A DNA stretch of 64,000 bases from an archaeon (GTDB taxonomy: Archaea; Iainarchaeota; Iainarchaeia; Iainarchaeales; Iainarchaeaceae): NCBI GenBank assembly GCA_038046625.1, contig JBBSVV010000003.1, forward strand, positions 4,017 through 68,016, given 5' to 3'. Position numbers and translations under genes: made by a program. Below, in pieces: positions 3,851 through 50,900 of this stretch. Under the pieces are notes generated by a model. It made no database searches. It had not been told where the DNA came from and saw only the letters and a program-made list of their open reading frames with translations. Position 1 is the first letter of the stretch, and every line of letters begins with the position of its first letter.

Positions 3851-3880
3851 TTTTTCTTTTCGTGCAACGAAAAGAAAAAA
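3851..3880. promoter_or_regulatory. TTTTTCTTTTCG-tgcaa-CGAAAAGAAAAAA palindrome abutting the 3' end of tRNA-Val
   Basis: Perfect 12-bp inverted repeat 4 nt from the tRNA 3' end. Confidence 0.5.
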
Positions 3881-3960: not shown

Positions 3961-3988
3961 TTTTTTCTTTTCTTGCGAAAAGAAAAAA
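3961..3988. promoter_or_regulatory. TTTTTTCTTTTC-ttgc-GAAAAGAAAAAA palindrome immediately 5' of tRNA-Val
   Basis: Perfect 12-bp inverted repeat with a 4-nt spacer, 5 nt from the tRNA 5' end. Confidence 0.5.
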
Positions 3989-4105
3989 CGTTGACGAAAA
4001 AAGAAAAGGCAAGTCCTGTTGCTGGAACAGCGTAGAATGAAGTGCCCTGATAGGGTTAAAAAAGTTGGCTAAAAAGGGAAAAAAGGCTTCTGAAGCAGAA
4101 GCCGT

Positions 4106-4396
4106 TTACTTTGTTTCTATTATTATTCCGCCGACCATTCCCGCGAATACATTGTACAGGAATGCGCTTAGTGCGCCGCCTATGAATCCTAATACTCCGT
4201 AAATTATCGGAAGTATTATTATTGACAGTACTCCGCCAAAGAGGCCTCCCGTAATTCCTGCCCCGTTTCCGCCTGCTATTGCCCCGAGCACAAGCGATAA
4301 TACCGTTAAGAGTGCCCCGAATATCAGGCCGATTACTGCGTATGTCACTCCCATGATTTTTGCCATGGACATGACGCCTATTTTCCTGATTTCCAA
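4106..4396 (-). CDS. Small glycine-rich integral membrane protein (hypothetical)
   Basis: 96-aa ORF, almost entirely hydrophobic and Gly-rich with 2-3 predicted TM helices. Coding status rests on ORF length only. Confidence 0.35.
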   Translation of the reverse strand: MEIRKIGVMSMAKIMGVTYAVIGLIFGALLTVLSLVLGAIAGGNGAGITGGLFGGVLSIIILPIIYGVLGFIGGALSAFLYNVFAGMVGGIIIETK

Positions 4397-4952: not shown

Positions 4953-6329
4953 TTACAATGTAACTGCCTTGACTTTTCCGTTTTCCTCTATTTTTCCCTT
5001 TCTTACTCCTACAACGTATTTTGCGCCGGCTTTTTCGGCCGCGTCGAAGAGCCTCTTGGTTATTACTCCGTCAAAGATTATTGAGTGGGCGTTCTTTATT
5101 TTCGCCATTTCCTCGACAAGGTTTTTTACCTCGACTTCCTTGACTTGTTTGTTCTTGTCGTCGAGAATTCTTGCCTTCATTGTTCCCTTGAGCTCGTCAA
5201 GTATGGGCCTGTAAACCGACTCTTCGTTCTGTGAGAGCGCTGGCCTTGCGGGGAATTCCTGTATAGGTTCCCTGGGCGCAATTGTTTCGCGCGGCACGAA
5301 TTCCCTTCTTTCGCGCCTGTCAGGCCTCATGCCGTTGTCGCGGTTGCCCCACCTGCTTGTTGGCCGTGGGTCCCTGTCTCCGTGATCGCGCATCCCTCCC
5401 CCGAAGCTTCTTTGGCCGAAGCTTCTTTCCCTGAAGCCGCGTTCGCGGAACGGCCTTTCCTGGAATGTCCTTTCGCGGAATTCCCCTCCTCCGGGAAATT
5501 TCCTTTCCGAGAGCTCTTCCTCCGCGGGAACCCTTTTTTTGAGGCTCTGGAGAATTTCTTTTCTCGTGAGTTCCTCGACTTCTTTTCCATCGGGCGCTTT
5601 TGCAATGTATGCTATGCGCGCGAGCTGTGCGAGTTTCCTCGCGTTCAGGATCCCTCCTCGGTCGCCGTCAACGAATGCGGTTATGCTTTTCTTTTTTCCG
5701 AGTTCGCTTATTGTGCTTGAGATGTTGGAGCCGTTCATTCCTATTACGTTCTTTATCTGGTTCCTCAGCATGTTCAAAACATCTGCGCGGCCTTCAACAA
5801 CAATTATTTCTTCGCTTATTTCTATGTCGGGGCCCGCGGGCAGTTTGTCCGGGCCGTACTCGGTTATTTCGGCTGCGCGGACGTTTTCGCGTATCTCGTC
5901 CCTCAGGGTTTGTGTTTCGGGGCTTGATTTGTCCATCATTTTTTTGAGCAGTTCTTTTGCGCGGTCCTTTATTTCCTGCCTTTTCGAGGTTCTCGTATCA
6001 TCAATGTCATCTATCTCGAACTTTGCCTGGCAGGGCCCAACCTTGTCCACGCTTTCAATGCTTGCCGCGAGCAGGCTCGTTTCCGCCATGTCCATTGAGC
6101 TCGGCACCAAAACCTCGCCCTTTGTTCTTCCCATTGCGGTTGTGTGGTTTATTTCTATGCGCCCGATTTTTCCGTTCTTCTGGAGCTCCTTCAAATCCAT
6201 TTCGTCTCCCAAGAGGCCTTCGCTTTGCCCGAAAATCGCGCCAATAATATCCGGCTTGTCAACTATGCCGTCTATTTCGAATTTCATTTTTATCATGTAT
6301 TTGACCGTGTTTATGTAGGTCTTCGCCAT
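4953..6329 (-). CDS. dnaG: Archaeal DnaG-like primase (Toprim domain) with an Arg/Glu/Phe-rich repeat insertion near the C-terminus
   Basis: N-terminus MAKTYINTVKYMIKMKFEIDGIVDKPDIIGAIFGQSEGLLG matches the archaeal DnaG N-terminal signature. Toprim block EIIVVEGRADVLNML...ITAFVDGDRGG. The ORF track begins 57 codons further upstream (6500); the start was chosen at MAKTYIN. Confidence 0.75.
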   Translation of the reverse strand: MAKTYINTVKYMIKMKFEIDGIVDKPDIIGAIFGQSEGLLGDEMDLKELQKNGKIGRIEINHTTAMGRTKGEVLVPSSMDMAETSLLAASIESVDKVGPCQAKFEIDDIDDTRTSKRQEIKDRAKELLKKMMDKSSPETQTLRDEIRENVRAAEITEYGPDKLPAGPDIEISEEIIVVEGRADVLNMLRNQIKNVIGMNGSNISSTISELGKKKSITAFVDGDRGGILNARKLAQLARIAYIAKAPDGKEVEELTRKEILQSLKKRVPAEEELSERKFPGGGEFRERTFQERPFRERGFRERSFGQRSFGGGMRDHGDRDPRPTSRWGNRDNGMRPDRRERREFVPRETIAPREPIQEFPARPALSQNEESVYRPILDELKGTMKARILDDKNKQVKEVEVKNLVEEMAKIKNAHSIIFDGVITKRLFDAAEKAGAKYVVGVRKGKIEENGKVKAVTL

Positions 6330-8100: not shown

Positions 8101-8191
8101 TTTTACTGCACCTCGCCGTTTTCGACCGGCGGTACCGATTGCCCCGCCTTCGGCGGGACTTGGCTCGCTTTGCTCGCAATATAGTTGCTCA

Positions 8192-12765: not shown

Positions 12766-12801
12766 CGTATAAAAAACTTTTGCTGTTTTCGCACCGGCAC
12801 G

Positions 12802-12853
12802 CCGGAAACCGCCGGCGGTACGGTGTACTATCTTCGCCTTTGGGCTCGATAGT
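12802..12853 (+). repeat. Structured repeat element, copy A: CCGGAAACCGCCGGCGG module + ACTATCTTCGC-N-GGGCTCGATAGT core
   Basis: Near-identical modules at 19705-19752 and 43774-43825. The core also occurs at 46761-46788, 34380-34392 and 60523-60552. Flanked by direct repeats GCACCGGCA (12791-12799 and 12863-12871). A TATAAAAAA-like box lies ~25 nt upstream (12770-12781). Confidence 0.7.
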
Positions 12854-12917
12854 CCATGCTCCGCACCGGCAACCACCCCCTATATGGTTTTAAAAGCCTC
12901 GAAGATTTGCTTCTTTT

Positions 12918-18191: not shown

Positions 18192-19691
18192 ATGCTCCCA
18201 ATTGGAAAGACTTTCCTGTCCCGCATCACTTACCTTTCGGAAAAGAGGCAGGTTGTTGCGGAGTTCTCGAATTCCTCGGAAAAAATTTCCAAGCGTTACT
18301 CTTTCTTTCCCCGTATGCATTTCCCGATGGAGGGGATTTCACAGGGTTCGCTGAAGGAGGTTTTGTCGCTTTATGATTCCAGGCGCTTCAAGGTTGATTT
18401 TGAGGAAAACCGTGCCGTGATTTTTGCCGCCACGTTTTCCGACCTGAAAAAAATAAATAATTTGCTTTCGGATTCCCTGGGCTTTTCCTCGAACCTCATT
18501 GAGCCTGAGAGGCAGTTTCTCATTGACAGGGGCTGGAGCTACTTTGATTCTTTCACTTTTTCTGCGGATGAGCCGCAGAGGGTTTCATCGCTTGATTTTC
18601 CTGATGTGGCGCTCGGCTTTCTCTCCGATTCCCTGCCCATGACGATGCGTGACCTCATTTCATCCAACAGGCAGCTGGCCAGGGAAATCGCGGGCCGCGT
18701 TTCCATGTCGAGGGTACTGCGTATCCCCCTATTGTCTTCGGAAATGCACAGGGCCGCTCCGGAGGTTTTTCTGGAGAATGTTTTTTTCGCTTCAAAAATG
18801 CCTGTCCCCATTTCTCCGGAAAAAAAGCAAAGCATTCCGTTGAGGGTTCCGCATAAGACGGAAATAGATTTTTCCGCGGTTACGCCGCTGCTCTTGTGCA
18901 GGCCGTTCTCGAATGCAGGCCCGGAGACAGTGAACTGTGCCTGCTGCAGGCCGGCTTCGCTGAATGATTTCAATGTCCTTGCGGATACAATTGTGAAGGC
19001 GCGTTTTTTGCGCGAGGGCGCGTATTTCAATTCCGCGTCTTCTTTTTGGGCGGAGCAGTTCCACGTTTCAGGCCGGGACAAGGATGCCAGGTCAAGGAGG
19101 CGCGCCGAGTATAATTACCAGTTTTTTCCCGTGGGGCCTTTTTCGCGGAATGAAACGGCGGAAATTCTTTTGGCGGATGCCGTTGAGCTGCAGGGGCAGG
19201 GCATTGCCGAAATTCTCGGCGTAACGGGGTGGAGCTGGTTTTGTTCACAGAAGGAAAGCGCATTTTCAAGGGAAACGAATGCCCTGCGCGAAACCATTTC
19301 TTCCCTTGAATCTTCCCTGGATAAGGAGCATACTTCCGTTGTTGCATCAAATGGCCTGTTTTTTTCGCAGGCGCTCGAGGCGCGGCTGGATTATTTTTAT
19401 AGGAAGATTTTCCTCGAAACCGCTTCCTCGATTTTGTGTTCGGTTTCCGGCGTGCTTTCCGACAGGTCTTCGGGCTTTTTCTCCCCAAAAATAGCTGTTC
19501 TGCTGGAAGTTGCTTCTTTCCGCATCCTCAAAGGTTTTGAGGAAATATGCTCCTCGAACGGCATTGCAAGGGTTTCCACGGGACCTTCAAAAGCCTTTGT
19601 GGACTCTTCCTCGGTTACGCGCATTTTGAAGGATTTTTCCGAGGCATACAAGTTGAATAGGCCGTTTGTAAGGCTCAAAACCCGTTTTTAA
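18192..19691 (+). CDS. Hypothetical Ser/Phe-rich 499-aa protein sitting between herA and rad50
   Basis: Long uninterrupted ORF with no strong competitor. No Mre11 phosphoesterase motifs and no other recognisable domain. Confidence 0.45.
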   Translation: MLPIGKTFLSRITYLSEKRQVVAEFSNSSEKISKRYSFFPRMHFPMEGISQGSLKEVLSLYDSRRFKVDFEENRAVIFAATFSDLKKINNLLSDSLGFSSNLIEPERQFLIDRGWSYFDSFTFSADEPQRVSSLDFPDVALGFLSDSLPMTMRDLISSNRQLAREIAGRVSMSRVLRIPLLSSEMHRAAPEVFLENVFFASKMPVPISPEKKQSIPLRVPHKTEIDFSAVTPLLLCRPFSNAGPETVNCACCRPASLNDFNVLADTIVKARFLREGAYFNSASSFWAEQFHVSGRDKDARSRRRAEYNYQFFPVGPFSRNETAEILLADAVELQGQGIAEILGVTGWSWFCSQKESAFSRETNALRETISSLESSLDKEHTSVVASNGLFFSQALEARLDYFYRKIFLETASSILCSVSGVLSDRSSGFFSPKIAVLLEVASFRILKGFEEICSSNGIARVSTGPSKAFVDSSSVTRILKDFSEAYKLNRPFVRLKTRF

Positions 19692-19704
19692 CAACCCTTT
19701 CGCG

Positions 19705-19752
19705 CCGGAAACCGCCGGCGGTAGGGCGACTATCTTCGCTTTGCTCGATAGT
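19705..19752 (+). repeat. Structured repeat element, copy B
   Basis: CCGGAAACCGCCGGCGGTAGGGCGACTATCTTCGCTTTGCTCGATAGT, just upstream of rpoK. A TTTTTAACAA TATA-like stretch lies ~25 nt upstream. Confidence 0.7.
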
Positions 19753-19827
19753 AAGGTATTACGCTCGGAACTACCTTTTTTAATTCTTTGCGTAGGAGTA
19801 TTGGTAGATTAATAACTCGTTTTTTGA

Positions 19828-20043
19828 GTGTTTTTGATGGCTAAATTAACCCGTTTTGAAGTGACGCGCCTGATTAGTGCGAGGGCTTTGCAGCTTTCCT
19901 TGGGGGCGCCGGCACTCTCTAAATCAGAAAAAGAAGGGACCCCGATTGATATGGCGCGCGATGAGTTCGCGAAGAAGGTAATTCCTCTCGCGGTTTTGAG
20001 GGAGTTTCCCGACGGGCACGTTGAAAGGGTTGAGGTGAACTGA
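19828..20043 (+). CDS. rpoK: DNA-directed RNA polymerase subunit K (Rpb6/omega homolog)
   Basis: LTRFEVTRLISARALQLSLGAP matches the RpoK/Rpb6 core; ~70 aa. Confidence 0.75.
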   Translation: MFLMAKLTRFEVTRLISARALQLSLGAPALSKSEKEGTPIDMARDEFAKKVIPLAVLREFPDGHVERVEVN

Positions 20044-22272: not shown

Positions 22273-22368
22273 GCGAAAGAATTAGGTCTGGAAAAAGTTA
22301 AAATGGGAGTCTTGTGCCTTTTTGGGATTTATAGCAGGCCAATAAAATATTTTGGCGATATTTTTGGT

Positions 22369-22428
22369 CTGCTATCTAGCACCTGGCAGAGCAAAGCTCT
22401 GCCGGGCCTCGTACCCTACGGGTAGAAG
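22369..22428 (-). repeat. Structured repeat element, copy G (hairpin-module variant)
   Basis: The reverse complement aligns to 34270-34345. GTACCCGTAGGGTAC hairpin is shared. The second hairpin GGCAGAGC-tttg-CTCTGCC covaries with CGCAGAATC-ttct-GATTCTGC(A). Confidence 0.6.
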
Positions 22429-22471
22429 GAACCACATTAAAATGCCGAAAACTTTCGTGGTTTGCTATAAA

Positions 22472-22918: not shown

Positions 22919-22995
22919 TGAAAAAACCTTATTTTTAGCGGCATTATTTGTCTAGTATTCTCTATTGAGTTACCTTTAAAAAGGTTGATTTCAGC

Positions 22996-23021
22996 CTTTT
23001 TCTTTCTTGCGAGAAAGAAAA
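22996..23021. promoter_or_regulatory. TTTTTCTTTCT-tgcg-AGAAAGAAAAA palindrome upstream of the tRNA-like 5' fragment
   Basis: Same inverted-repeat family as the motifs flanking the tRNAs. Confidence 0.45.
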
Positions 23022-23103
23022 ACGCTGGCGAAAAAGAAAGAGACGGGGCATATTTTTGGCCATAGAACCTTTAATTAAGTGTTTTTCACCCATTTTTTTG
23101 CAC

Positions 23104-24286: not shown

Positions 24287-24461
24287 CTGCACTTTCACGC
24301 AGAATCCTTGATTCTGCTGAAACCTGCACTAAAAAGAAAGAGTGCCGGAAAAAGAAAAGACCCCTGTTTCTGGCTCGGCAAGCCGTGCTTGGCCGGTTTC
24401 AATGTGGCCAGGGCTCGCTTTCTTTTAGGCAAGGAATTAATACTCGCAAGTAGTTGTATTT

Positions 24462-34142: not shown

Positions 34143-34240
34143 ATTAACAGCAATTGCCTATAAAGTGTTAAAAACACTTGGAAATCACTTCATTACATGA
34201 CAAGAGTCGCTGTTCTCGAGAAGGACCGTTGCATCACAAC

Positions 34241-34402
34241 AGTTTCGTCTGTTGGGTGCGAGTACTATCTCCTTGTACCCGTAGGGTACGAGGCCTCGCA
34301 GAATCTTCTGATTCTGCAAGGTCGCTTGGGCTCGATAGTAAGTTTGGTTATGGGTGTGAGGCACGATACTTCGCAGTTGACCTGCTTTGCGTTTGGTGAT
34401 GT
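34241..34402 (+). repeat. Structured repeat element, copy E (long form), inserted just upstream of abce1 and preceded by a diverged duplicate of the first 44 nt of abce1
   Basis: Starts ACAACAGTTTCGTCTGTTGGGTGCGA. Contains GTACCCGTAGGGTAC, CGCAGAATCttctGATTCTGC and GGGCTCGATAGT. 34197-34240 repeats 34406-34449 with 5 synonymous differences. Confidence 0.7.
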
Positions 34403-34405
34403 GAA

Positions 34406-36184
34406 ATGACTCGAGTAGCTGTTCTGGAAAAGGACCGTTGCATCAATGGCACGGGCTGTGATTACATATGCGGCCACGTGTGTCCAGTGAACCGCGCGGG
34501 AAAGGACTGCATTGTTCTAGATGAGGTTACAAACAAGCCCGTCATCAGCGAGGAGTTATGCATCGGCTGCAACATATGCGTAATTAAATGCCCCGTGGAT
34601 TGCATTTACATCGAGAACCTTGTCCAGGAACTGAACGAGAATCCTGTGCATCGCTTCGGCGAGAACGCGTTCAGGTTCTACAGGCTCCCCACAATAAGGA
34701 ACGGAGAAGTAGTTGGGTTGATTGGCAGGAACGGAATAGGAAAAAGCACTATCCTGAAAATAATTTCTGGCCAGCTGGTTCCAAATTTGGGGGATTACAA
34801 TTCAAAAGGCTCTTACGATTCGGTGATAAATTTTTTCAAGGGGAAGGAATTGCAGCGGCTTTTTTCCTCGCTGAAAGACAAGCGGATAAAGGTTTCTTAC
34901 AAGCCGCAGAACATAACTGATTTGCCCAAGGCGGCGAAAGGCACTGTGCGCGAACTCCTGAAAAAAACCGATGAGCGCAAAAAACTTTCCGAGGTTTCGG
35001 AGTTGCTGGGCCTCGGAAAAATTTTGGACAGGGAACTCTCGCACTTGAGCGGAGGAGAATTGCAAAGGGTTGCGATTGCCGCGGCCTCATTGAAGGATGC
35101 TGATTTGTATGCTTTTGATGAGCCAACTTCTTATTTGGATGTGAGGGAGCGCCTCAATGCCTCCAAGGTTTTGCGCGGTCTTGCGGAATCCGGAAAGGCG
35201 GTTGTTTTGATTGAGCATGACCTCGCGGTTCTTGATTACTTGAGCGATTATGTGCACCTTCTTTACGGAAAAAAATCGGTTTACGGAATAGTTTCAAAGC
35301 CGAAGAGCGTTCGCAATGGCATTAACGAGTTTTTGGAGGGCTTTGTGAAGGATGAGAATGTTCGGTTCAGGAGCACAGAGCTGAAATTTGAGGTCAAGCC
35401 TTCCACGGATTTCAGGAAAAAGAAAGTTATTGCTAGCTACCCGGAACTCAAAAAGTCCTTCAAGGGATTTTCCCTCGAGGCTGAGGCGGGGGATTTGCGC
35501 GAGGCCGAGGTTCTGGGAATAATGGGCCCCAATGCAATAGGCAAAACGACTTTCGTGAAGATGCTTGCCTCCGTTGAGAAGCCAGATTCAGGGAAGATTG
35601 ATTTTTCCATGCATGTTTCCTACAAGCCACAGTACCTTGTGCCTGAAAAGGGCGTTACTGTTGGTGATTTTATTGATTCTCAGGACCTTGATCTCTCGGT
35701 TTTCAAGAATGAGGTTGACCGAAGGTTGGCAATTACAGAGCTGGAAAATCACTTGCTTGAGGAATTGAGTGGCGGCGAGCTCCAGAAGATTGCTGTCGGA
35801 GTGGCGCTTTCGCGCACGAATTGCGAGCTCGTTCTTTTGGATGAACCAACCGCTTTTGTTGATGTTGAAGATAGGCTGAACATGGCTGATGCAATCCGTT
35901 CCGTAACAGATGCGAAAAAGAAGATTTGCATGGTTGTTGACCACGACATTTTGTTCCAGGATTATGTTTCTGACAGGTTGATGGTTTTTTCTGGCGAGCC
36001 CTCCGTGAAGGGCTTTGCGGGCGCCGCAATGTCAATGCATGACGGGATGAATTCTTTCCTCAAATCGGTTGGAATTTCTTTCAGGCGCGACCCGGAAAGT
36101 GGAAGGCCGCGTGCAAACAAGTTGCATTCGCAGCTCGACCAGGCGCAGAAGAAGAAAGGTGAGTATTACTATCTCGTGGATTGA
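34406..36184 (+). CDS. abce1: ABCE1 / RNase L inhibitor (Fe-S cluster + twin ABC ATPase)
   Basis: N-terminal Cys-rich ferredoxin-like domain (CINGTGCDYICGHVCPV ... CIGCNICVIKCP). Two Walker A/B + LSGGE ABC cassettes. Confidence 0.85.
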   Translation: MTRVAVLEKDRCINGTGCDYICGHVCPVNRAGKDCIVLDEVTNKPVISEELCIGCNICVIKCPVDCIYIENLVQELNENPVHRFGENAFRFYRLPTIRNGEVVGLIGRNGIGKSTILKIISGQLVPNLGDYNSKGSYDSVINFFKGKELQRLFSSLKDKRIKVSYKPQNITDLPKAAKGTVRELLKKTDERKKLSEVSELLGLGKILDRELSHLSGGELQRVAIAAASLKDADLYAFDEPTSYLDVRERLNASKVLRGLAESGKAVVLIEHDLAVLDYLSDYVHLLYGKKSVYGIVSKPKSVRNGINEFLEGFVKDENVRFRSTELKFEVKPSTDFRKKKVIASYPELKKSFKGFSLEAEAGDLREAEVLGIMGPNAIGKTTFVKMLASVEKPDSGKIDFSMHVSYKPQYLVPEKGVTVGDFIDSQDLDLSVFKNEVDRRLAITELENHLLEELSGGELQKIAVGVALSRTNCELVLLDEPTAFVDVEDRLNMADAIRSVTDAKKKICMVVDHDILFQDYVSDRLMVFSGEPSVKGFAGAAMSMHDGMNSFLKSVGISFRRDPESGRPRANKLHSQLDQAQKKKGEYYYLVD

Positions 36185-43224: not shown

Positions 43225-43800
43225 TCACCCACTCTGGCCGAATGTGACTTTTGTTTCGGATCCGATTTTGTCCACTTTTGCAATGAATATGGCGCCCTGC
43301 ACTCCGGTGTTTACCTCACTCGGCGAGCATGAGAATGAGGCTCCTGCATCGAGCTCTTTCGTGCATTTTTTGTCTGCATCAGGATCCAAATCCAAGGCCA
43401 AGTCATCATCCGCATTGTTTTTGCATTCTTCGGGGACGCGGGCTGAAATCTGTTCAAGCCCCGCATCAAGCGGAACAACAAGGTATGAGAAACCTATCCC
43501 TGCAAAGTTCGTGGACGGTGGGGCCGCAGGAACGCAGTAAATTTTTGATTGCGGCGGAATAACAATTTCTATGGTCTGCCTTGTTCCGGCGCCGGATATT
43601 GAAACGTATTGTGCCGCGTTCACGAGCTTGTCGGCAGAGGCGCGGAGCTTCGCGAGGTTTGCGGTGTCGTTCATTGCATTGCTCGCAATGTCCGCGTTCG
43701 GCTGTATTATTGCGACTATGTAAAGCAGTGAAACCACGAGTATGAGCAGAAATTCTATGCTCGCCTGCCCCCGCCGGAAACCGCCGGCGGTATGGTGCCC
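43225..43800 (-). CDS. Pilin-like protein whose N-terminal signal peptide (RRGQASIEFLLILVV) is encoded by repeat element C; start codon unresolved
   Basis: Class III signal motif RRGQAS-IEFLLIL. No in-frame ATG within 50 codons upstream. The coding frame runs through the CCGCCGGCGG palindrome. Confidence 0.4.
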   Translation of the reverse strand, partial: GHHTAGGFRRGQASIEFLLILVVSLLYIVAIIQPNADIASNAMNDTANLAKLRASADKLVNAAQYVSISGAGTRQTIEIVIPPQSKIYCVPAAPPSTNFAGIGFSYLVVPLDAGLEQISARVPEECKNNADDDLALDLDPDADKKCTKELDAGASFSCSPSEVNTGVQGAIFIAKVDKIGSETKVTFGQSG

Positions 43801-43915
43801 TATCTTCGGTTTTGGCCTCGATAGGTCTTGCTTCGCAATTTTCCCGTTCAAAATATCAAGTTCCACAACAGTTTCGGCTGTTGGGTGCGATAGCCCATGC
43901 TGTCGCATGGACTTG
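43774..43915 (+). repeat. Structured repeat element, copy C (module 1 + hairpin module CAACAGTTTCGGCTGTTGGGTGCGATAGCCCATGC), with a diverged duplicate of the prepilin-peptidase gene 3' end
   Basis: CCGGAAACCGCCGGCGGTATGGTGCCCTATCTTCGGTTTTGGCCTCGATAGG, then a ~45-bp direct repeat (43827-43870 versus 43916-43960). Confidence 0.65.
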
Positions 43916-43940
43916 GCGTTGCTTCGCAACGCAGGCTTAT

Positions 43941-45065
43941 TCAAATAATCAAGTTCCATATCAAGTCTCCCGTAAACTGAAGCGCAATGTACGCAATGAG
44001 GATTGCGGGAACAAATGCCGCGGTTTTTCTCACGACCAGTTGCTTCGGCGCATTTCCCTGCAAAGCTTTTTTCCTGAGTTCTTTCGCCGCCTCTTCCGTA
44101 AGCCCTCCCGCCTCGCGCGGGCTCGAAAACACGTTCCCAGGGACTTTGTATGCCTTGAGGGCGTTTTCAATTTTATTATCCATTAACTGCTTAATAACAC
44201 TTTTTATGCTCGGCGCCTCGACAGGAATTATTTTCCCTCCTTTTTCCACAAGGTAATAATCCGGAATCATTCCTTCCGTGATTTTTGCGGTTTCAATTTT
44301 TTCCCTGAACGCAAATTCGCGGCTCTCTGCATAAAGTTTCCACAGGAAATAAACGCACACCAGCGGAACCGCTATCGCTATCGAGTTGAACAAAAGGTTT
44401 TGCGCCGAAACCAGCAGGCCGGCAACGGCTGAAATTATTATTGCCGCGTTCCTCGCCTTTTTTGGGATGAAAGCTGCGGCAACCATTATGGGGAGCACCC
44501 AGAACAATTCAATCCCGGATTTTGAAAGAATGGTTTCAACGCCAGCGGCAAAAATTCCGGCGCCGAGAATGCCAGTTGCTTTTGATGCTACGGCTTTCAT
44601 CGTCCTCGCGAAAACTTCTTTGTGCTTCAATGAGGCCGTAAGCGCCATCAGGATTCCGAGCGGCAGCATGGAAAATATTGATGCCACTATGAGCGTTACC
44701 GCAAAAATCGGCAGCGGGGTTGTTGAAAGCAATTGGCCTTGCAGCCCGAGCGCGTCCCTGAGGATTCCGTAATTTACGGGGTTGATTATTGCGAGCGCTG
44801 TAACAAGCTTGACATCGCCTCCCGCCCACGCGCCCATCCTGTAGAGCGCGTATGAAACCACAAAGGCAATTGTGGCAGCGGCGAATGCAAATAATATTGG
44901 TTCGATTGCCTGTGCATTCAGCGATTCAAAAATTTTTAGTATTATGCCGGTTCCGGCTATTGTGTAAGTGAGCCTGTTCGGAACAATCCGTTTCCTGAGG
45001 TCGGTATAGGTTGCAATGAGCAGTGTTATGAGTGTTAAAAAAAAGTATAGGGAGGAAAACACCAT
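43941..45065 (-). CDS. Prepilin/pre-archaellin peptidase (A24 family, PibD/FlaK-like) with a C-terminal extension
   Basis: Polytopic membrane protein. N-terminal DLRKRIVPN aspartyl-peptidase motif and a second Asp in ...AWAGGDVKL. Confidence 0.65.
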   Translation of the reverse strand: MVFSSLYFFLTLITLLIATYTDLRKRIVPNRLTYTIAGTGIILKIFESLNAQAIEPILFAFAAATIAFVVSYALYRMGAWAGGDVKLVTALAIINPVNYGILRDALGLQGQLLSTTPLPIFAVTLIVASIFSMLPLGILMALTASLKHKEVFARTMKAVASKATGILGAGIFAAGVETILSKSGIELFWVLPIMVAAAFIPKKARNAAIIISAVAGLLVSAQNLLFNSIAIAVPLVCVYFLWKLYAESREFAFREKIETAKITEGMIPDYYLVEKGGKIIPVEAPSIKSVIKQLMDNKIENALKAYKVPGNVFSSPREAGGLTEEAAKELRKKALQGNAPKQLVVRKTAAFVPAILIAYIALQFTGDLIWNLII

Positions 45066-45732: not shown

Positions 45733-46688
45733 TATCCGGCACCTCCAACCAACAGGCCTGAGAGTATCTCCGCAGCTATGTAGGCTGAATATGCGATAAA
45801 CAAGAGGATTGGGAAGTATATAATACTTTTCCCGGCCTTTCCGTCGCGCATGATGCTTATCATCACGCTTGTGATCGCCGTTTCAATGAAGATGTACGCT
45901 TCTATCGAGATGCTTATTATGCCGAGCGCCTTTATGGCTGAAGCCTGTTCCGCGGCCGAGGCCACTCCTGCTGACGCGGTGAGGAGTACGTGCGTTATTG
46001 TTGAGACAAATCCGAAAATCATGGGTGCGATTGCGCCTCCCGCTGCAAACATGAATATTACCTGCATTGCGGTTCTCGCCTTTCTGTCCTTGTTTATCCT
46101 GAATGCCTCGCGCACATCCTCCGAAATTTCTTCGAGCACTCCAGCAAGGCCCGCCCCTGCCCTCACAGAGTCGATTATTATCGTTATTGTCCTCTTCACG
46201 AGCCTCGAATCCACGTTTTCGGACAGTGTTTTGAGCGAGTTGTCGAAGTTTTCGCCTTCCTCGAGCTTCCTGAGCACTTCGTTCATTTCCTTTTTCAATG
46301 GCCCGTATTCTGATGTCGCGATTTCCCTCAATGCATACTCGTATGTTCCCCCTGCCTTTAGGGTGTCCGCCATCTGCCTCAATGCGTCGGGCAGCGCTTC
46401 CTCTATTTCCTCAATTCTTTTTACCGCCATCAGGTATGGGTAACCAATCATGAGGTCGATAACCACGACGAACGCGAGCACGCCGACCTGTATGTTCCTC
46501 GTTATTCCCGCCTGCCCCAAAAAGTACCAAGTGCTCAACCCGATAATTACGGAAGCGAGCACCGAGAGCATTATCCAGAGCACTGGGTCCACCCTGAATT
46601 CCGCGCTTCTCAGGTAGTCCGCATATTTCTGCACGAACTGGATTTTGTTTATCAGCGGTATCTTGCTTGCAAGCCTTAGGGCCATTTC
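45732..46688 (-). CDS. FlaJ/TadC/PilC-like polytopic membrane platform protein (T2SS F domain), copy 1
   Basis: Start at MALRLASK. Two repeats of the cytoplasmic-domain + 3-TM pattern. Confidence 0.6.
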   Translation of the reverse strand, partial: EMALRLASKIPLINKIQFVQKYADYLRSAEFRVDPVLWIMLSVLASVIIGLSTWYFLGQAGITRNIQVGVLAFVVVIDLMIGYPYLMAVKRIEEIEEALPDALRQMADTLKAGGTYEYALREIATSEYGPLKKEMNEVLRKLEEGENFDNSLKTLSENVDSRLVKRTITIIIDSVRAGAGLAGVLEEISEDVREAFRINKDRKARTAMQVIFMFAAGGAIAPMIFGFVSTITHVLLTASAGVASAAEQASAIKALGIISISIEAYIFIETAITSVMISIMRDGKAGKSIIYFPILLFIAYSAYIAAEILSGLLVGGAG

Positions 46689-46702
46689 ATCCCCTCCTCC
46701 CG

Positions 46703-46788
46703 CACAATAGTTTCGTCCGAGAATGCGCCTCGGAAGGGTGCCAAGATTGTTGGGTACGACTGCTATCTTCGCCGTGGGGCTCGATAGT
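46703..46788 (+). repeat. Structured repeat element, copy D, at the junction between the two tandem flaJ-like genes
   Basis: ...GGGTACGACTGCTATCTTCGCCGTGGGGCTCGATAGTAA. Flanked by imperfect direct repeats TTCATCCCCTCC (46687-46698) / TTCATCCCACC (46814-46824) that contain the stop/start junction GGGATGAAA. Confidence 0.6.
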
Positions 46789-46813
46789 AAAAACATTTGC
46801 GTGTGTCATTTTT

Positions 46814-47968
46814 TCATCCCACCTTCGGTTGGGTTATTTTTAAGTAGAACACGAGGAACCCAAGCACAAGCGGCATTGCAACCAAATAAATTGCCGCTAT
46901 TGCTATCGGGGACAATGCAACGCTTCCCACGGAAATCGGTGCATTGGTTATGGAGCCTATTATTCCGATGAAAACCGGCACCACTATTGCGGCGAAAATG
47001 TATATTACTCCGAAGAAGTTCATTTTTTCCGAGAACTCGCGGACCGCAATGCGCATGTCGAAGCTCACGTCCTCGGCAATTGTGTTCATTATGTCCGAGA
47101 GGTTTCCCCCGGTTTTCATTGCGCGTATTATGTGCAGGAGCGCGTTGCGCAGCGCCTTTGACTGTGTCCTTAAAGCGAAGTGCCTTAGCGCGTCTTTCGT
47201 GTCCGTTCCTTCCTCGACCTCGTTTATTGTGCGCGCGAATTCTTCGCTCAGCACGCCGTAATCTGAGGTCGCTATTGTCTGCAGTGTTTTGTAGAGGCCT
47301 ATTCCGGACTTTAATTCGGTCGCCATGTGCCTCAATGCGAAGGGCAGCTCCACGCTCATGGCGTCGCCCCTTCTTTGTGCGTTGCTTTTCGGTACGAGCA
47401 TCAGCGCTACAAGCGCGAACATTCCCACTGCGCCGGAAATGAGGATTGAGTAAAGCAGGTTCACCTTGTACACGAAGCTCAGTGCGGCAATGATTGCAAA
47501 TGAAAATATTCCCGCAAGCGTTGCGGCCGCAAGGGAAAGCGCGAGCCATTGCTGGAGCGAGTACTTCATGTTTGCGGAGTAAAGGTAATACCGCACATCA
47601 TTCGCGAGCGGCAATTTTTTTATGAGGCGTGAAACCGGGTCAAGCGGCAGCCTGAGCATCAGGTAAAGTTTTCCAAGGCTCTTTATCGCAGGGCTCTGGA
47701 ATTCCTGCAAATCTTCAACGGTCTGGACGTTTATTTTTGCCTGTTCGCCCTCGGCAATTATTCCCCTCAGCTCCCCAAGCTTTCCCCCGACTTCCTCGAA
47801 TTCAATGCCCTGTTCACGGTACTTTTTTTTCATGCGGTCGACTATTTTTTCTACCTTGTCCATGTCCACGGTTTCCTGCGCGTCCTTTCCCGCAGTCGTC
47901 TGCTTTTTTTCTTCCTTTTTTTCCTCGATTTTTTTTCTCAGGTCGCTCAAAGTGCTCATGGTGTTCAC
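46814..47968 (-). CDS. FlaJ/TadC/PilC-like membrane platform protein, copy 2
   Basis: Same architecture as 45732-46688; 384 aa. Confidence 0.6.
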   Translation of the reverse strand: MNTMSTLSDLRKKIEEKKEEKKQTTAGKDAQETVDMDKVEKIVDRMKKKYREQGIEFEEVGGKLGELRGIIAEGEQAKINVQTVEDLQEFQSPAIKSLGKLYLMLRLPLDPVSRLIKKLPLANDVRYYLYSANMKYSLQQWLALSLAAATLAGIFSFAIIAALSFVYKVNLLYSILISGAVGMFALVALMLVPKSNAQRRGDAMSVELPFALRHMATELKSGIGLYKTLQTIATSDYGVLSEEFARTINEVEEGTDTKDALRHFALRTQSKALRNALLHIIRAMKTGGNLSDIMNTIAEDVSFDMRIAVREFSEKMNFFGVIYIFAAIVVPVFIGIIGSITNAPISVGSVALSPIAIAAIYLVAMPLVLGFLVFYLKITQPKVG

Positions 47969-50900
47969 TTTTTTTTCATTGAGTACTGCTTTACCGCTTC
48001 GGAGATTTCTTTCATGCTTCTCCTGTTTTCCTTCACGAGCTTTTCGAGGTATGCCGCCCTGTCCTTGACCTCGTCATCAAAGTCCTTTTTGGACATTCCC
48101 GCGAGTTCCTGGAGTTTTTGGGCGTAATTTATCTGGGCTTTTGTCCTTTTTAGGGAGTCTGTTACCGGGTCGCGCAGGTATACGGCTTCGGTTTTCGGCT
48201 TGCCTTCAAGGGCGCCGGTCACTTGGGCAATTTCGGTTATTCTCCTTATTGTCCCCATTTTCCTGTCGTGCAGCCTGTGCTGTACAACTATTATGTCGAG
48301 CCCGGAAAGCATTACTTGCGGCACGTTCATCGGCGGGTTTGTCACCCTCACGATTGTTTCCTGTGCCGAGTTTGCGTGCACTGTTCCGAGTGAATTTCCC
48401 ACGATTATTCCCTGTGCCACGAAATTATGGGGGTTCCTGCCGGTTTGCCTTTCTTCGCTTACCGTCAGGTCATATACAAATCCGTTGTATGGGTATGAGT
48501 GTATGGCAATTACCTTATCCCAGAAAATGTCGGATTCCGCGAGCAGCTTAAGCTTTGAGGATTCAATTCCCGCAGATTCAAATGCCTTGGCGAGTGCCCC
48601 GACTGCACGCCTGCTCGGCGTCCTTTCCCTTCTTTTGTAAAAACTTATTGCTCCTTGTGTTAATCCTGCCATTCTCGCAATTTCAGAATTGCTGTACCCC
48701 TTTTCTTTTTTTGCCGTTTTGAGCAGTTTTATTATGGTGCCGTTGCATTCTATGGTGTCGGTATTCGTGTTGCTTTCTTTTCCCCTGCCGAGCAGTTCCT
48801 CTATTTTCCTTATTTTTTCGGGGAATTTTACCGGGTAGGTTTTGTAGAATTTTTCCACTTGGTCTATTCCATAAATATAGAGCCTGTACCATCTGCTGTT
48901 GTGTGCGCGTGACTCGTATTTTCTGGAGGTTATCCCTTCCGTCAATAATGCATAGCGGAAAAAATCTATGTAGTGCTCGTTTGCGCATGAAATGACGATT
49001 GCATTGTTGTTTGCATCAACATGCCCTTCTGCGTCAAAAAAGCCCGCGACAAACCCGCGCAGGGAGTTCGTGTAGTGTGAATTGGACATTTTTGCTTTCT
49101 GCCTGCTTCCCGCGGGGATGTCAAGCATTTCCATAATCTTTGCGGTTTTCTTGAACCCGCTTATGTGCGCTTCATAGCATTGCTTTTGCGGGCGCGGGTT
49201 CACTATTTTCACGTGTGTCCCATCGAGGTTTTCTTTCATGTAATTTATGAATTTCGGGATTATGGTTTCCTCTTCTGTGTAGAGGTTTATTGAGCCTTCA
49301 TTGCACAGGTATTGCTTGCCGTTTTTTTTCCTTTGCCTTTTGTAATAGGTTATGTTTCCGTCACCGTGCAGCAGGCCACTCCAGTATTCGCTCTCGGTTT
49401 CTTTTGCGTTTTCTTCCCTGAGCAGCTTTCTCGGGGTTGCAATGTTTTGCCCTTCCTTGAGAGTGTCCGCCCTTGCCTGTTGAATGTTGTCCGCAAGAGT
49501 ATAGAATGGGTGGTTTCCCGTGCAGGTTAGTTCGCTGCCGGAAGCAAGCTTTATGTGGTAAACGTTGCCTGTGAAAGGCCTGCGCCTTGCCTGCACGATT
49601 TTTTGCCTGTTCACTTTCCCTTTGCCGTCCACAGAGTTGATGTGCTCATCGCCCACAGTGCACACTTCCCACTCTCCTTCTTTCCGGCTGCCGTTTTTCT
49701 GCAGTTGCTCTTCCGTGAATTGGCCGATTTCGCGTATTCCCGAAGTCAGCGCTATTTTTGCTTCGCCCGTAAGGCAACCGTCATGCCCCGTGTTGAATGC
49801 CGTGAACAATGAGAACGCCTCATCATGCCTGATTTCGCCGACAATTATCCTGTCAGGGCGCATTCTCAGGGAATTTTTCGTGAGTATGTCAAGCGTTACC
49901 TCTCCGGTTCCTTCAAGCCCAGGCGGCCTTGCTTCCATCCTTATCCAGTGCTTCAAGGGAAGGTTCAGTTCGGCCGTGTCCTCAATGGAAATTATCCTTT
50001 CTGTTTCCGGTATGAATGTTGCGAGCACGTTCAGCGTTGTGGTTTTTCCGGAGCCGGTTCCGCCTGAAATCAGTATGTTTGCGGGTTTCGTGCCCAAGCC
50101 ATCGGTGCATGCCCACAGGAATGCGGCGGTTTCCGCTTCAATGGTTTTGTTTTTTATGAGGTCTATTATTGTGTAAGGGTCTTCGCGGAACTTTCTTATT
50201 GTCAATGTGGAGCCCTGCACCGAAGCGGGGGGAATTGTTGCGTTGACCCTGCTTCCATCAGGGAGTCTCGCATCAAGGAGCGGGCTGCTGATGTCCACCC
50301 TTCTTCCTATTTGCCTTGCAATCCTGTTCACGAGATCCTGTATTTCATTGTCGTTGTAGAACTCGATGTTCGTTATCATCATTCCGTATTTCCTGTGGAA
50401 AATGTAAACCGGCCTGTTCGGCGCGATGACCATTATTTCCTCGAGCTTGTCATCGTGAATCAGGTCGTCTATTATTCCGTACCCTATCATTTCCCGTATT
50501 ACCGTGTTCGCATAAAAATCAAACCGCGTTTTTGGTATGTTGAGTTCCGGGGAGTCGCGGAGAATCTCAAGCACTTTCTGGTAGTAAACGTTCTTTCTCT
50601 GCTCCGGGTCGCGGATCTTGTAAGGCGTAATGCTGATTACCCTTGTCGCGGCCTCCTTGATGGTGTTGATTATTGTTTTTTCCGCCCCCACAGGCCTTGG
50701 CACGGGTATCCAGTAGTAAAGCAGGGGCTGTCCCGGGAGCTCGTAAATTTTGGCGTTTCCATAGGAATCAATGAGCTTTTTTTCGGATGTTTCCAGTTCC
50801 CTTTCCGCGGTGGATTTTTGTTCCTCGGGAACGCTTTCCGGGTTTTGCGGCGCGTTGATATTTTCCTGTGGCGGGAGCGTGCTCTTTATTTCCGCTATTT

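Follow-up and report, generated by a model that had tools for sequence, protein, structure and literature searches.

How a pilin-like gene can be read when no start codon lies close to its cleavage site, and what the palindromic DNA is that separates it from the neighbouring prepilin peptidase gene, are the questions raised by one junction in a 64-kb stretch of archaeal DNA (64,000 nucleotides, here called the window). The explanation we favour, with a probability of roughly 60%, is that two double-hairpin elements inserted at this junction, that target DNA was duplicated in the process, and that the pilin gene would have tolerated the insertions by means of a long in-frame leader. The junction contains the following features.

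43225..43959, minus strand: pilin-like open reading frame, 244 aa from ATG 43959 and open from there
43765-43959, minus strand: pilin leader of 65 residues, if ATG 43959 is the start
43772..43846, plus strand: element copy 1, CGCCGG subfamily (covariance model 57.1 bits, E 3.5e-13)
43772-43789: hairpin 1 of copy 1, CGCCGG-AAACCG-CCGGCG
43800-43824: hairpin 2 of copy 1, CTATCTTCG..CTCGATAG
43828-43838: module TTGCTTCGCAA of copy 1
43839-43846: tail TTTTCCCG of copy 1
43847..43865, minus strand: relic copy of the end of the peptidase gene, forming the left half of the target duplication and adjoining hairpin 1 of copy 2
43866..43939, plus strand: element copy 2, CAACAG subfamily (covariance model 19.1 bits, E 0.004)
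43866-43883: hairpin 1 of copy 2, CAACAG-TTTCGG-CTGTTG
43886-43907: variant second hairpin of copy 2, TGCGATAGC-CCAT-GCTGTCGCA
43916-43932: 7-bp hairpin of copy 2, GCGTTGC-TTC-GCAACGC
43940..43958, minus strand: right member of the 19-nt target duplication, the peptidase 3' end in current use (WNLII*)
43941..45065, minus strand: prepilin (class III signal) peptidase gene, 374 aa, C-terminus ...GDLIWNLII*, stop codon 43941-43943
43967..43971, minus strand: Shine-Dalgarno-like GGGAG, 7 nt upstream of ATG 43959-43957 and within the peptidase coding sequence

The peptidase matches Pfam Peptidase_A24 (E 3e-15; its Arc_PepC match is weak) and shares 98% amino-acid identity (dN/dS 0.08) with its ortholog in Candidatus Iainarchaeum andersonii, the closest relative. 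The pilin gene and this A24 peptidase gene are neighbours in a pilus operon that also holds T2SSE and T2SSF genes. Alignment with homologous peptidase-pilin loci shows that most of the DNA between the two genes is missing from I. andersonii: the junction measures 167 nt in the window (43773-43939) and 8 nt in that relative, whose DNA (about 94% identity, 93.5-94.5%) aligns up to 43772 and then from 43940 on. In a more distant relative (L005) the junction is also compact. As judged by alignment and covariance model, the 167-nt insert comprises two members of a double-hairpin repeat family, arranged in tandem, that represent two subfamilies and independent insertions. The sequence-only reading had described a single element; two family copies, of 57.1 and 19.1 bits, take its place. 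Tandem duplication of one unit was rejected as their origin, as the first hairpins and spacers come from different subfamilies. Copy 1 is missing from the orthologous site of I. andersonii and is 85% identical across 66 nt to the family copy at 12800. Copy 2 begins with CAACAGTTTCGGCTGTTGGGTGCGA (43866-43890), which recurs at 34237-34261 with 24/25 nt identical (0 expected), so that the earlier proposal of a hairpin module shared with another copy in the window is borne out with one mismatch. The DNA of 43766-43962 folds far better than its shuffles (z = -4.9).

From this one comparison we infer a two-step insertion history. No intermediate alleles were found by the peptidase search, among population loci or in a metagenome scan. 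The peptidase search returned sequences above 52% identity only from this species and I. andersonii; L001-L003 belong to the same population (at least 99.7% identity) and have an identical junction; and scanning metagenomes for a peptidase end without copy 2 gave no matches. That pattern would match I. andersonii too, so this lineage is probably absent from the collection.

The pilin is predicted to be cleaved at ...RRGQ|ASIEF, between 43765 and 43764, which would leave a mature part of about 179 aa. A basic residue and GQ precede a hydrophobic helix (...FRRGQ|ASIEFLLILVVSLLYIVAII), as in archaeal type IV pilin precursors, where a (K/R)(G/A)Q|(A/S) motif is followed by a hydrophobic helix starting ..IEF; the Pfam Class_IIIsignal match (PF04021, residues 62-81) is weak, at E 0.028 and below the curated cutoff. 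Homologs begin MERGQASIEF... (P0002, 84% identity) and MRGQASVEF... (P0003). On this alignment the pilin already had its cleavage motif GQ|ASIEF and its hydrophobic helix before the insertions, and what the elements give is limited to leader residues upstream and two nucleotides of the codon for Arg at -3. The view that an element supplies the signal peptide is therefore right for the in-frame leader residues and wrong for the cleavage motif and helix. The other strand of the palindrome CCGCCGGCGG is indeed read in frame with the pilin (...HHTAGGFRRGQASIEFLLILVV), and it was also correctly observed that no canonical start lies between the palindrome and the helix. The pilin had, however, been described as having no nearby ATG, and in-frame ATG codons occur at 43959 and 43908. 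With a GTG at 43869 these give candidate leaders of 65, 48 and 34 residues. A short leader of less than about 15 residues is not encoded, as the 29 codons preceding the cleavage site contain no start. The records for this pilin give three different starts.

ATG 43959 follows its Shine-Dalgarno-like GGGAG at a distance of 7 nt, and other genes in the operon have GGAGG/GGTGA-type motifs 2-8 nt before their starts. I. andersonii has this GGGAG-N7-ATG as well, and there the upstream ATG is in frame with the pilin (MEPNILKMERGQASIEF) and would yield the leader MEPNILKMERGQ|ASIEF; in L005 the same upstream pilin frame is open.

It is conceivable, if unlikely, that copy 1 inactivated the pilin gene by removing its start codon, that the upstream frame is open by chance and that the gene is a young pseudogene or silent. 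The proximal ATG present in both relatives is gone in the window, and the implied leader of 65 residues, of which 53 are encoded by mobile-element DNA, compares with 4-9 residues in the other pilins of the operon and 4-12 in orthologs and paralogs together. The lack of Shine-Dalgarno-like motifs before ATG 43908 and before GTG 43869 would also fit inactivation, as would the disagreement of annotation pipelines over the start (213 aa from the GTG, 227 aa from ATG 43908). Several observations argue the other way. The mature region (about 180 codons) is intact, with a dN/dS of 0.36 relative to I. andersonii, and the Shine-Dalgarno-ATG pair that was in frame in the ancestor is still kept. The lengths of both insertions are divisible by three (22 and 31 codons; net gain 159 nt, 53 codons), and neither brings a stop codon into the pilin frame. 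When the insert is shuffled with its dinucleotides preserved, only 11% of the results lack stops in that frame, and keeping the frame twice (two independent one-in-three chances) with no stops has a joint chance of about 0.01-0.04. The insertion moreover seems old, because the copies of the 19-nt repeat discussed below have diverged by about 10%; this divergence (2/19) is comparable in magnitude to that at synonymous sites between the species (0.11-0.24). It suggests that the pilin gene has survived long since insertion, a time argument that amounts to 2 substitutions in 19 nt.

In the reading we prefer, with the insertions accommodated in the leader, copy 1 would have entered just after the proximal pilin ATG-GAA and cut it off from the remaining gene; tentatively, the tail TTTTCCCG may include a relic of this old start. 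Translation would most likely begin at ATG 43959 with its ribosome-binding site. This codon lies within the last peptidase codons, in another reading frame, and would have been in frame with the pilin already in the ancestor. The resulting leader, hydrophilic, net-positive and 65 residues long, would replace one of about 12 residues, and the adjacent prepilin peptidase would remove it at the conserved RGQ|AS site. Since both insertions are in frame and stop-free, they are most likely in-frame extensions of a leader cleaved by the neighbouring peptidase, and they would have been tolerated because the element-encoded residues would never reach the mature pilin. The elements probably turned a 12-residue pilin leader into a 65-residue one. 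Exaptation of the element as coding sequence, as proposed earlier, is plausible in this weak sense of a tolerated, removable putative leader. Processing and membrane insertion might fail with a leader so far beyond 4-9 residues.

The peptidase end bears on how copy 2 could have arrived. A 19-nt direct repeat, TTCAAAATATCAAGTTCCA (43847-43865) and TTCAAATAATCAAGTTCCA (43940-43958), has 2 mismatches and only these 2 matches in the 64 kb (0.02 expected), and when the two flanks of the 43866 element are aligned locally, the score exceeds that of shuffles at p<0.003. A direct repeat of the peptidase 3' end at the element had been claimed and is confirmed here. Its length had been put at about 45 nt, of which the 19 nt are real. 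The middle of the longer repeat (TTTTCCCG versus CGCAGGCTTA) is unrelated. There are exactly two occurrences of the block TTGCTTCGCAA (43828 and 43919). They are collinear with the 19-nt repeat (spacings 91 and 93 nt), and the block is probably an element module rather than peptidase-derived. In unrelated genomes (L020, L080), family copies likewise carry a TTGCTTCGCA block 3' of their second hairpin, and with the unrelated middle this leaves only about 19 nt that are demonstrably peptidase-derived. The stretch 43916-43960 had been taken as the peptidase C-terminus; the reading frame ends at 43941, which places 43916-43940 outside the peptidase coding sequence, and the coding part of the repeat is only 43941-43958.

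Translated in the peptidase frame, the left-hand copy gives LLWNLIF*; the 19 nt themselves cover W N L I F, the stop codon and one further nt. Its ATATTTTGA (LIF*) is the ancestral ending, as found in I. andersonii, and the peptidase end in use is now LII*; the two mismatches are adjacent, ATT ATT in the in-use end and ATA TTT in the relic. Both copies have a lineage-specific TTG codon (AAC TTG, versus AAC CTA in I. andersonii), so the 19-nt duplication appears to have been made in this lineage. By this shared codon the flanking duplication is a copy of the target and was not carried by the element, as the sequence-only reading had supposed. Copy 2 would have entered six codons before the peptidase stop, duplicating 19 nt, such that the right-hand copy is now used and the ancestral end persists as a relic. 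No duplication is detectable in the flanks of copy 1, so another route of arrival is possible for that copy.

The earlier suggestion that gene-terminus duplication recurs at elements is supported by the ABCE1 5' end, the rpoK 5' end and the T2SSF junction. The covariance model finds 7 family copies in the window; those outside the peptidase-pilin junction are listed here with the ABCE1 repeat.

12800..12856, plus strand: family copy, 63.8 bits, flanked by a 10-nt direct repeat CGCACCGGCA (p about 0.01)
19703..19755, plus strand: family copy, 54.1 bits, with an rpoK 5'-end duplication of about 27 nt, gapped (p about 0.003)
34237-34342 plus tail, plus strand: sister case, a long element of the CAACAG subfamily matched by the covariance model
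34197-34236 and 34406-34445, plus strand: 40-nt duplication of the ABCE1 5' end, score 55, p<0.003 (whole case 34197..34445)
46742..46791, plus strand: family copy between two T2SSF genes, 44.2 bits
60523..60552, minus strand: family copy, 30.7 bits, the model matching hairpin 2 only (positions 28-54 of 57)

At ABCE1 the duplication covers 40-43 nt and the stop of the upstream ORF now overlaps the true start in an ATGA; at rpoK the duplicated 5' end is now the C-terminus of the upstream ORF. The flanks of the 46742 copy are weaker (a 9-nt TTTCATCCC repeat, p about 0.03), and this T2SSF site is filled in I. andersonii too and empty in L005. Window flanking duplications with p of 0.01 or less measure 10, 27, 40 and 19 nt, and a gene terminus is duplicated or rebuilt at four or five window copies (peptidase, ABCE1, rpoK, T2SSF junction).

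These cases suggest that on insertion a stretch of host DNA would be duplicated on both flanks, one duplicate adjoining the first base of hairpin 1 exactly and the other following the variable tail. Staggered breaks, then fill-in synthesis, would be the likeliest cause. With a duplication of this length (10-61 nt), an insertion up to a few dozen bases from a gene end would regenerate a complete terminus on one side, so that insertions survive and gene-terminus duplications accumulate at elements.

Archaeal integrase att sites typically comprise repeats of such lengths at tRNA genes and gene ends. The gene-terminus repeats could accordingly be att sites of site-specific integration, or homologous-recombination imports, mostly deleted later, which we consider improbable. 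The repeat lengths (14-61 nt) and the targets at tRNA genes and gene ends would suit this origin. So would the fact that the in-use peptidase end and not the relic differs from I. andersonii, and that all 5 differences between the ABCE1 copies are synonymous, as if both had evolved as coding sequence in different lineages. Against it, only about 50-170 nt lie between repeats, with no integrase gene there; the 74 nt of 43866-43939 and the 169 nt of 34237-34405 hold no integrase-size ORF. At least 5 different targets in the 64-kb window, and many elsewhere, would each need an attachment site of their own. The TTG codon common to both peptidase-end copies is likewise contrary to import, and tandem [element + target] arrays in L011, L112 and L104 fit repeated insertion at one site. 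SSV-type integration uses a core of about 44 bp. The resemblance to integration at tRNA genes lies in repeats of tens of nt that contain a gene terminus, one completing the gene and the other a relic, and in the frequency of tRNA genes as targets; the short distance between repeats, the lack of an integrase, the many targets per genome and the tandem arrays set the present elements apart.

The element consists of a core of about 55 nt and a variable tail, forms two DNA hairpins and encodes no gene. The sequence of hairpin 1 is variable, and its stem is always 5-9 bp long; a spacer like GGTACGA separates it from hairpin 2, whose core is CTATC-TTCG-[inner stem]-CTC-GATAG. The covariance model finds 63 copies in the window and the archaeal loci searched. 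Base-pair cells are paired in 85.8% of cases, versus 68% in shuffles and 27-41% in slid controls, and double-change cells number 206 versus 63 in shuffles, in an alignment fitted to the model. The loci were gathered by the exact CTATCTTCG..CTCGATAG pattern, so that invariance of the core is partly an artefact of the finding method. The MAFFT alignment made for RNAalifold misaligned hairpin 1, and a curated subset and the covariance model were used instead. A hairpin 1 stem of at least 5 bp accompanies 47/68 archaeal motif hits, versus 11/60 bacterial chance matches of the same 17-nt motif, and flanking repeats scoring at least 14 (14-61 nt) accompany 19/65 archaeal versus 3/59 bacterial chance hits. 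The left repeat usually ends about 29-31 nt before CTATC (in some copies up to about 40 nt), a distance that places its end at the first base of hairpin 1; the right-hand repeat lies at a variable distance of 0-100 nt from hairpin 2. As a trait of the family, host duplications of 10-61 nt also flank copies in other DPANN and Altiarchaeota genomes, where tRNA loops and the ends of genes are common sites. Among the targets are D-loops, T-loops and 3' ends of tRNAs. Copies are also linked to assembly breaks: runs of N stand at them in one public metagenome-assembled genome.

It is most doubtful that the element acts mainly as a functional RNA structure or as a signal for cis regulation or processing (terminator, tRNA-adjacent processing site, attenuator), controlling the pilin, rather than as mobile DNA: structure is strongly conserved with compensatory changes in several archaeal phyla, many copies directly abut tRNA 3' ends, TTCG loops are frequent and the junction folds with the z score given above, but GT/TG pairs (27) show no excess over AC/CA pairs (26), so that neither strand is favoured and DNA rather than RNA is indicated, copies lie both sense and antisense to the transcription of flanking genes, presence at orthologous sites differs between close relatives, host-derived flanking duplications are unexpected for a regulatory motif, and no Rfam family matches. 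At gathering scores Rfam reports 4 tRNAs only in the whole window, and permissive scans of 43740-43970 and 34180-34420 gave chance-level matches only (E above 1). On inspection, a hammerhead-like reading of hairpin 2 (reverse strand CUAUC-GA-G[stem]C-GAA-GAUAG) fails, the helix being continuous and the essential hammerhead positions different, and a kink-turn reading of its core requires a register that pairs poorly.

Mobile carriers were also considered. Comparison of all ORFs against all in 50 archaeal loci found no transposase-like gene recurring near copies; a LAGLIDADG-like protein occurs in 5 loci, far from the elements, along with housekeeping genes. None of 44 motif hits in viral contigs had the two-hairpin architecture. 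Integron attC sites do not apply, as core sites RYYYAAC/GTTRRRY are absent, hairpin 2 ends CTATC/GATAG and copies lie among housekeeping genes rather than in cassette arrays. IS200/IS605-derived palindromes and REP sequences insert with no target duplication and have similar hairpins near both ends. Derivation from IS200/IS605 or REP/RAYT is disfavoured by the long duplications, the dissimilarity of hairpins 1 and 2 and the lack of a GTAG or CGTC tag in the alignment. As in MITEs, copies are multiple, non-coding and present or absent between relatives. Terminal inverted repeats (at least 10-15 bp) are lacking: reverse-complementing the left ends (CAACAGTTTCGG... or CGCCGGAAACCG...) does not yield the right end (...GCTCGATAG plus tail). 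Nor is there a fixed target duplication of 2-10 bp, the repeats being variable at 10-61 nt.

Full-text literature searches found no description of this element family, and its relation to known systems is one of partial likeness. MITEs, REP/BIME, Correia/NEMIS and ERIC share with it a short, gene-less, hairpin-forming and mostly intergenic sequence in many copies, and MITE-type repeats likewise differ in presence between close relatives and are sometimes co-transcribed or translated with host genes. Target duplications of MITEs are stated as 2-10 bp (PMC11602168). The present element differs in its unrelated ends without terminal inverted repeats, in its duplications of 10-61 nt, in a core that spans several archaeal phyla rather than one genus and in having no known parent insertion sequence. 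Rickettsia palindromic elements insert in frame into protein-coding genes. The likeness here is a palindromic repeat translated within a host protein without destroying it; the differences are residues confined to a cleaved leader, another sequence and structure, another domain of life and long flanking duplications. Among mitochondrial elements, the double-hairpin DHEs of Allomyces, the repetitive hairpin-forming RHEs of sponges and yeast GC clusters resemble this element as pairs of hairpins of tens of nt that have spread in compact genomes, and they too cluster near tRNA genes and gene ends with no known enzyme. The Allomyces elements are reported without flanking duplications (PMC2800124). 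Long duplications, residence in archaeal chromosomes and a lack of sequence similarity distinguish the present family from them.

More tentatively, we propose that the double-hairpin element represents an undescribed class of archaeal mobile DNA, spread through DPANN and Altiarchaeota and making long, variable target duplications (10-61 bp), a possibility we rate at somewhat less than even. On this view it lacks terminal inverted repeats, the foot of hairpin 1 is invariably one of its junctions, and it would prefer tRNA loops, 3' ends and the hairpin loops of resident copies, building tandem [element + target] arrays. If this is true, the insertion mechanism, by transposition or repair and probably with a host enzyme, would be unlike the known pathways of transposases, integrases and reverse transcriptases; should the family prove as common as the motif scan indicates, the long variable duplications would point to an insertion mechanism new for archaea.

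DPANN genomes are tiny and streamlined, yet at least 7 copies of one hairpin element occupy this 64 kb. The pilin would offer a clean natural test of the maximal class III leader length that is still processed. Its extension would be one example of a routine remodelling of gene termini into new C-termini, leaders, upstream ORFs and ribosome-binding sites, and a widespread family would shift gene boundaries and cause annotation errors on a large scale without itself being annotated.

The peptidase and the pilin-like ORF belong to a minus-strand type IV pilus operon, which comprises a T2SSE ATPase, two T2SSF genes, three small pilins, an A24 prepilin peptidase, the pilin-like ORF and a further small pilin. 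The source is a DPANN archaeon closely related to Candidatus Iainarchaeum andersonii. An identical peptidase protein occurs on GCA_964365115.1 contigs and in two sequencing-run assemblies, and the nearest pilin homolog lies on I. andersonii contig AQRS01000033. Separately, the T2SSE ATPase gene holds a 1.39-kb internal segment (48388-49775) that is missing in I. andersonii (618 aa versus 1079 aa) and is an intein with a LAGLIDADG domain, by Pfam matches on the gene call of L001, a locus from the window's own population. The junction contains the following features.

Genes and element copies at the peptidase-pilin junction
43225-43959, minus strand: pilin-like ORF
from 43772: element copy 1, hairpin CGCCGG-AAACCG-CCGGCG, then CTATCTTCG-GTTTTGGC-CTCGATAG, then TTGCTTCGCAA
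from 43866: element copy 2, CAACAG-TTTCGG-CTGTTG-GGTGCGA, a variant 9-bp hairpin, then the 7-bp hairpin GCGTTGC-TTC-GCAACGC
43941-45065, minus strand: A24 prepilin peptidase, stop codon 43941-43943

The window and I. andersonii are 93.5-94.5% identical along the operon, and their alignment is interrupted precisely at 43772/43940, with 167 nt of window sequence facing 8 nt in I. andersonii. There the peptidase ends ...TGG AAC CTA ATA TTT TGA and the annotated pilin starts two bases past that stop (ATG GAA AGG GGG CAG GCA AGC, MERGQ|ASIEF). The junction is just as compact in the more distant relative L005 (MRGQ|ASVEF); the window's lineage therefore gained the 167 nt by insertion.

In the insert, a covariance model of the family (20 members) detects two copies, 43772-43828 (57.1 bits) and 43866-43914 (19.1 bits), so that the element recognised in the sequence-only reading is present, as two copies rather than one. 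The fold of the whole stretch has z = -4.9. Copy 1 is 85% identical to the copy at 12800; the start of copy 2 matches the copy at 34237 at 24 of 25 positions, and the hairpin module CAACAGTTTCGGCTGTTGGGTGCGA has a further occurrence at 34237 that differs by one mismatch, as had been proposed. The direct repeat is also real: TTCAAAATATCAAGTTCCA lies at 43847-43865, between copies 1 and 2, and again with two mismatches at 43940-43958, after copy 2, these being the sole two matches in the window (0.02 expected). Of the ~45 nt claimed as a duplicate of the peptidase end, this 19-nt part stands. The TTGCTTCGCA block is read as an element module rather than as part of the peptidase end, because it also follows hairpin 2 in unrelated genomes (L020, L080). 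The peptidase C-terminus had been placed at 43916-43960, but the position of the stop leaves 43916-43940 outside the coding sequence. TTGCTTCGCAA occurs exactly twice (43828 and 43919), collinear with the 19-nt repeat. The duplication could conceivably have spanned ~38 nt, its middle part being replaced afterwards.

AAC TTG is found in both 19-nt copies, against AAC CTA in I. andersonii, and the duplication therefore arose within the window's lineage. The first copy is a relic that keeps the ancestral ATA TTT TGA (IF*); the functional peptidase end reads ATT ATT TGA (II*). Because copy 2 and its duplication amount to 93 nt, the relic is in frame with the peptidase, and read-through of the TGA would add 30 residues, ending ...LLWNLIF*. 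This is probably a mere by-product.

The minus-strand reading of the CCGCCGGCGG palindrome as ...HHTAGGFRRGQASIEFLLILVV holds. The pilin had been described as having no nearby ATG, but its frame extends without a stop to ATGs at 43908 and 43959. The former ATG-GAA-A and GG-GGG-CAG are now separated by copy 1, whose last bases restore the Arg codon at position -3 (TTC CGG CGG GGG CAG); beyond the element, CGGGAAA is a possible relic of the old start, ATGGAAA, although the match is weak. ATG 43959 lies inside the last peptidase codons (GAT ATG GAA C), with GGGAG 7 nt upstream, comparable to the ribosome-binding motifs of other operon genes. The same ATG is in frame with the pilin in I. andersonii, reading MEPNILKMERGQ|ASIEF, and the equivalent upstream frame is likewise open in L005. 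From ATG 43959 the window's frame runs stop-free through both elements, giving a hydrophilic 65-residue leader of net positive charge. In net terms 159 nt (53 codons) were inserted, reconstructed as +66 nt from copy 1 and +93 nt from copy 2 with its duplication. A stop-free pilin frame was obtained in 11% of dinucleotide shuffles of the insert; with two independent one-in-three frame chances the joint probability is ~0.01, or 0.04 if the insert was a single event.

The proximal pilin ATG is lost, and a dead or silent pilin gene is a serious, if rather unlikely, alternative. The mature pilin part is intact (dN/dS 0.36), and divergence between the 19-nt copies (2 of 19 positions), set against the between-species synonymous divergence of 0.11-0.24, suggests that the gene has survived long after the insertion. 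We favour translation from ATG 43959 because of the in-frame ATG, the GGGAG, the stop-free insert and the intact mature part; the adjacent peptidase would then remove the entire 65-residue leader at RGQ|AS. The original observation is largely confirmed, and its interpretation, partly right, acquires a broader frame.

An exact-pattern scan (CTATCTTCG-N3-12-CTCGATAG, one genome per species) gave chance matches in bacteria and, in archaea, dozens of matches (Iainarchaeota, Woese-, Pace-, Micr-, Aenigm- and Undinarchaeota, Altiarchaeota and a few bins labelled otherwise). The full architecture is confined to the archaeal matches.

Architecture of the element family
Hairpin 1: 5-9 bp, 8-12 nt upstream
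Spacer: often like GGTACGA
Outer stem of hairpin 2: CTATC/GATAG extended by 3-4 covarying pairs
Interior of hairpin 2: covarying inner stem

Across 63 model matches, from loci collected by the exact core pattern and aligned by fitting to the model, 85.8% of cells are paired, versus 68% in shuffles and 27-41% in slid controls, and double-change cells number 206 versus 63 in shuffles. One copy has CCATC/GATGG instead of CTATC/GATAG. GT/TG pairs show no excess over AC/CA (27 versus 26), copies lie in both orientations relative to transcription, and Rfam scans returned no family match to the element; all three speak for hairpins or a cruciform in the DNA rather than for a functional RNA.

The copies at L030 966-1022 and window 12800-12853, from apparently non-orthologous loci of the two species, are 96% identical, far more than the ~86% that dS predicts for neutral sites. 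This points to recent activity, to exchange between lineages or to strong constraint on the element. Another, diverged member went undetected by the covariance model at 22360-22440 (minus strand), where 33 nt are 91% complementary to 34270-34302. It copies part of the long insert in hairpin 2 of the 34237 element and ends in GCTAGATAGC. Whether 8114-8180 (CGCCG-TTTTCGAC-CGGCG, GTACCGATTG, then hairpin CCCGCC-TTCG-GGCGGG), just upstream of a gene starting MAKTDTS, is a diverged relative is uncertain at 6.5 bits. L001 (GCA_964365115.1) has 100-N scaffold gaps at 4052-4151 and 5457-5556, one of which falls exactly within the element that separates the T2SSF genes; short-read assembly apparently breaks at the repeats.

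Flanking duplications, of which the sequence-only reading had noted those of gene termini, are a family property. Flanking direct repeats scoring at least 14 (14-61 nt) accompany 19 of 65 archaeal motif matches versus 3 of 59 bacterial chance matches, two of the latter being an unrelated bacterial repeat. The left repeat typically ends ~29-31 nt before CTATC (up to ~40 nt in some copies), at the first base of hairpin 1; the right one starts 0-100 nt past GATAG.

Flanking repeats at window copies
12800: 10-nt repeat, p about 0.01
19703: about 27-nt gapped repeat, rpoK 5' end, p about 0.003
34237: 40-nt repeat, ABCE1 5' end, p<0.003
43866: 19-nt repeat, peptidase end, p<0.003
46742: repeat of at least 9 nt, p about 0.03
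43772 and 60523: no flanking repeat found

The duplicated sequence belongs to the host. It comprises 5' halves of tRNAs with the cut in the D-loop (archaeal loci L065, L039), 3' ends of tRNAs with the cut in the T-loop or close to it (L011, L019, L071, L086), and gene ends. The tRNA boundaries at these loci fall in the T-loop (57/58 or 58/59), the D-loop or precisely at the discriminator base, which suggests a preference for hairpin loops or ends in DNA. Hairpin-1 loops of resident copies also serve as insertion sites (L023, L030, window 19703 and 46742), and tandem [element + target] arrays occur in L011, L104, L112 and L115. At L112 1250-2749, from an unrelated archaeal bin, a Fic-domain gene has two [element + 35-nt target] units in tandem on its upstream side and a third downstream, a hint that such arrays may bring about the insertion or rearrangement of genes. 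Variable duplications with one precise junction could come from staggered breaks with fill-in or, alternatively, from reverse transcription primed at the target site or from repair-mediated capture.

Other gene ends in the window bear similar marks. At 34197-34445 the 40-nt ABCE1 5'-end duplication flanks a long element; all five differences between the copies are synonymous, each copy encoding MTRVAVLEKDRCI. A 70-codon ORF (34197-34409) begins in the upstream copy and crosses the element, and its stop overlaps the true ABCE1 start (34406) as ATGA; this looks like translational coupling by way of the element. At 19665-19860 the end of ORF 18192-19691 (...VRLKTRF*) resembles the start of rpoK (MAKLTRFE...) on the opposite side of the 19703 element; the upstream ORF has apparently taken its C-terminus from a duplicated rpoK 5' end. 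The element between the T2SSF genes, compared across window 46640-46860, is present in I. andersonii (L004 5150-5330) and absent in L005 (4100-4200); the window copy has an extra 30 nt in its hairpin-1 loop. The last codons of the first T2SSF gene (GAAGGTGGGATGA) seem to recur, in diverged form, as the ribosome-binding region of the second, GGAGGAGGGG.

A palindromic family distinct from the element, TTTTTCTTTTC-N-GAAAAGAAAAA, adjoins tRNA genes in the window (1845-1895, 3730-3780, 3851-3877, 3961-4011, 22995-23045, 24312-24362). Similar motifs flank tRNAs and elements in archaeal loci L012, L046, L086 and L106, and the palindrome may serve as a promoter or terminator signal for the tRNAs.

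The double-hairpin element has the behaviour of a non-autonomous mobile repeat, and the translated palindrome at the pilin resembles the outcome seen with Rickettsia palindromic elements. It differs from attC sites, which were rejected. A MITE was also rejected: the element has no terminal inverted repeats, and its duplications are far above MITE length, quoted as 2-10 bp (PMC11602168). IS200/IS605-type and REP elements make no target duplication, whereas this element does; unlike att-bounded integrated elements, it is tiny, has no integrase and has many targets. Its nearest analogues in form are the mitochondrial double-hairpin elements, which are reported without the flanking duplications (PMC2800124) that the archaeal element has. 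Literature searches and Rfam scans found no description of the double-hairpin family.

With duplications this long, an element that inserts up to a few dozen bases from a gene end restores that end on one flank, which is enough to account for the terminus duplications that accumulate at elements. We propose that an archaeal double-hairpin element, apparently undescribed, inserted twice at the peptidase-pilin locus, one insertion making the 19-nt duplication of the peptidase terminus, and that the two together probably turned a short pilin leader into a long, still cleavable one.
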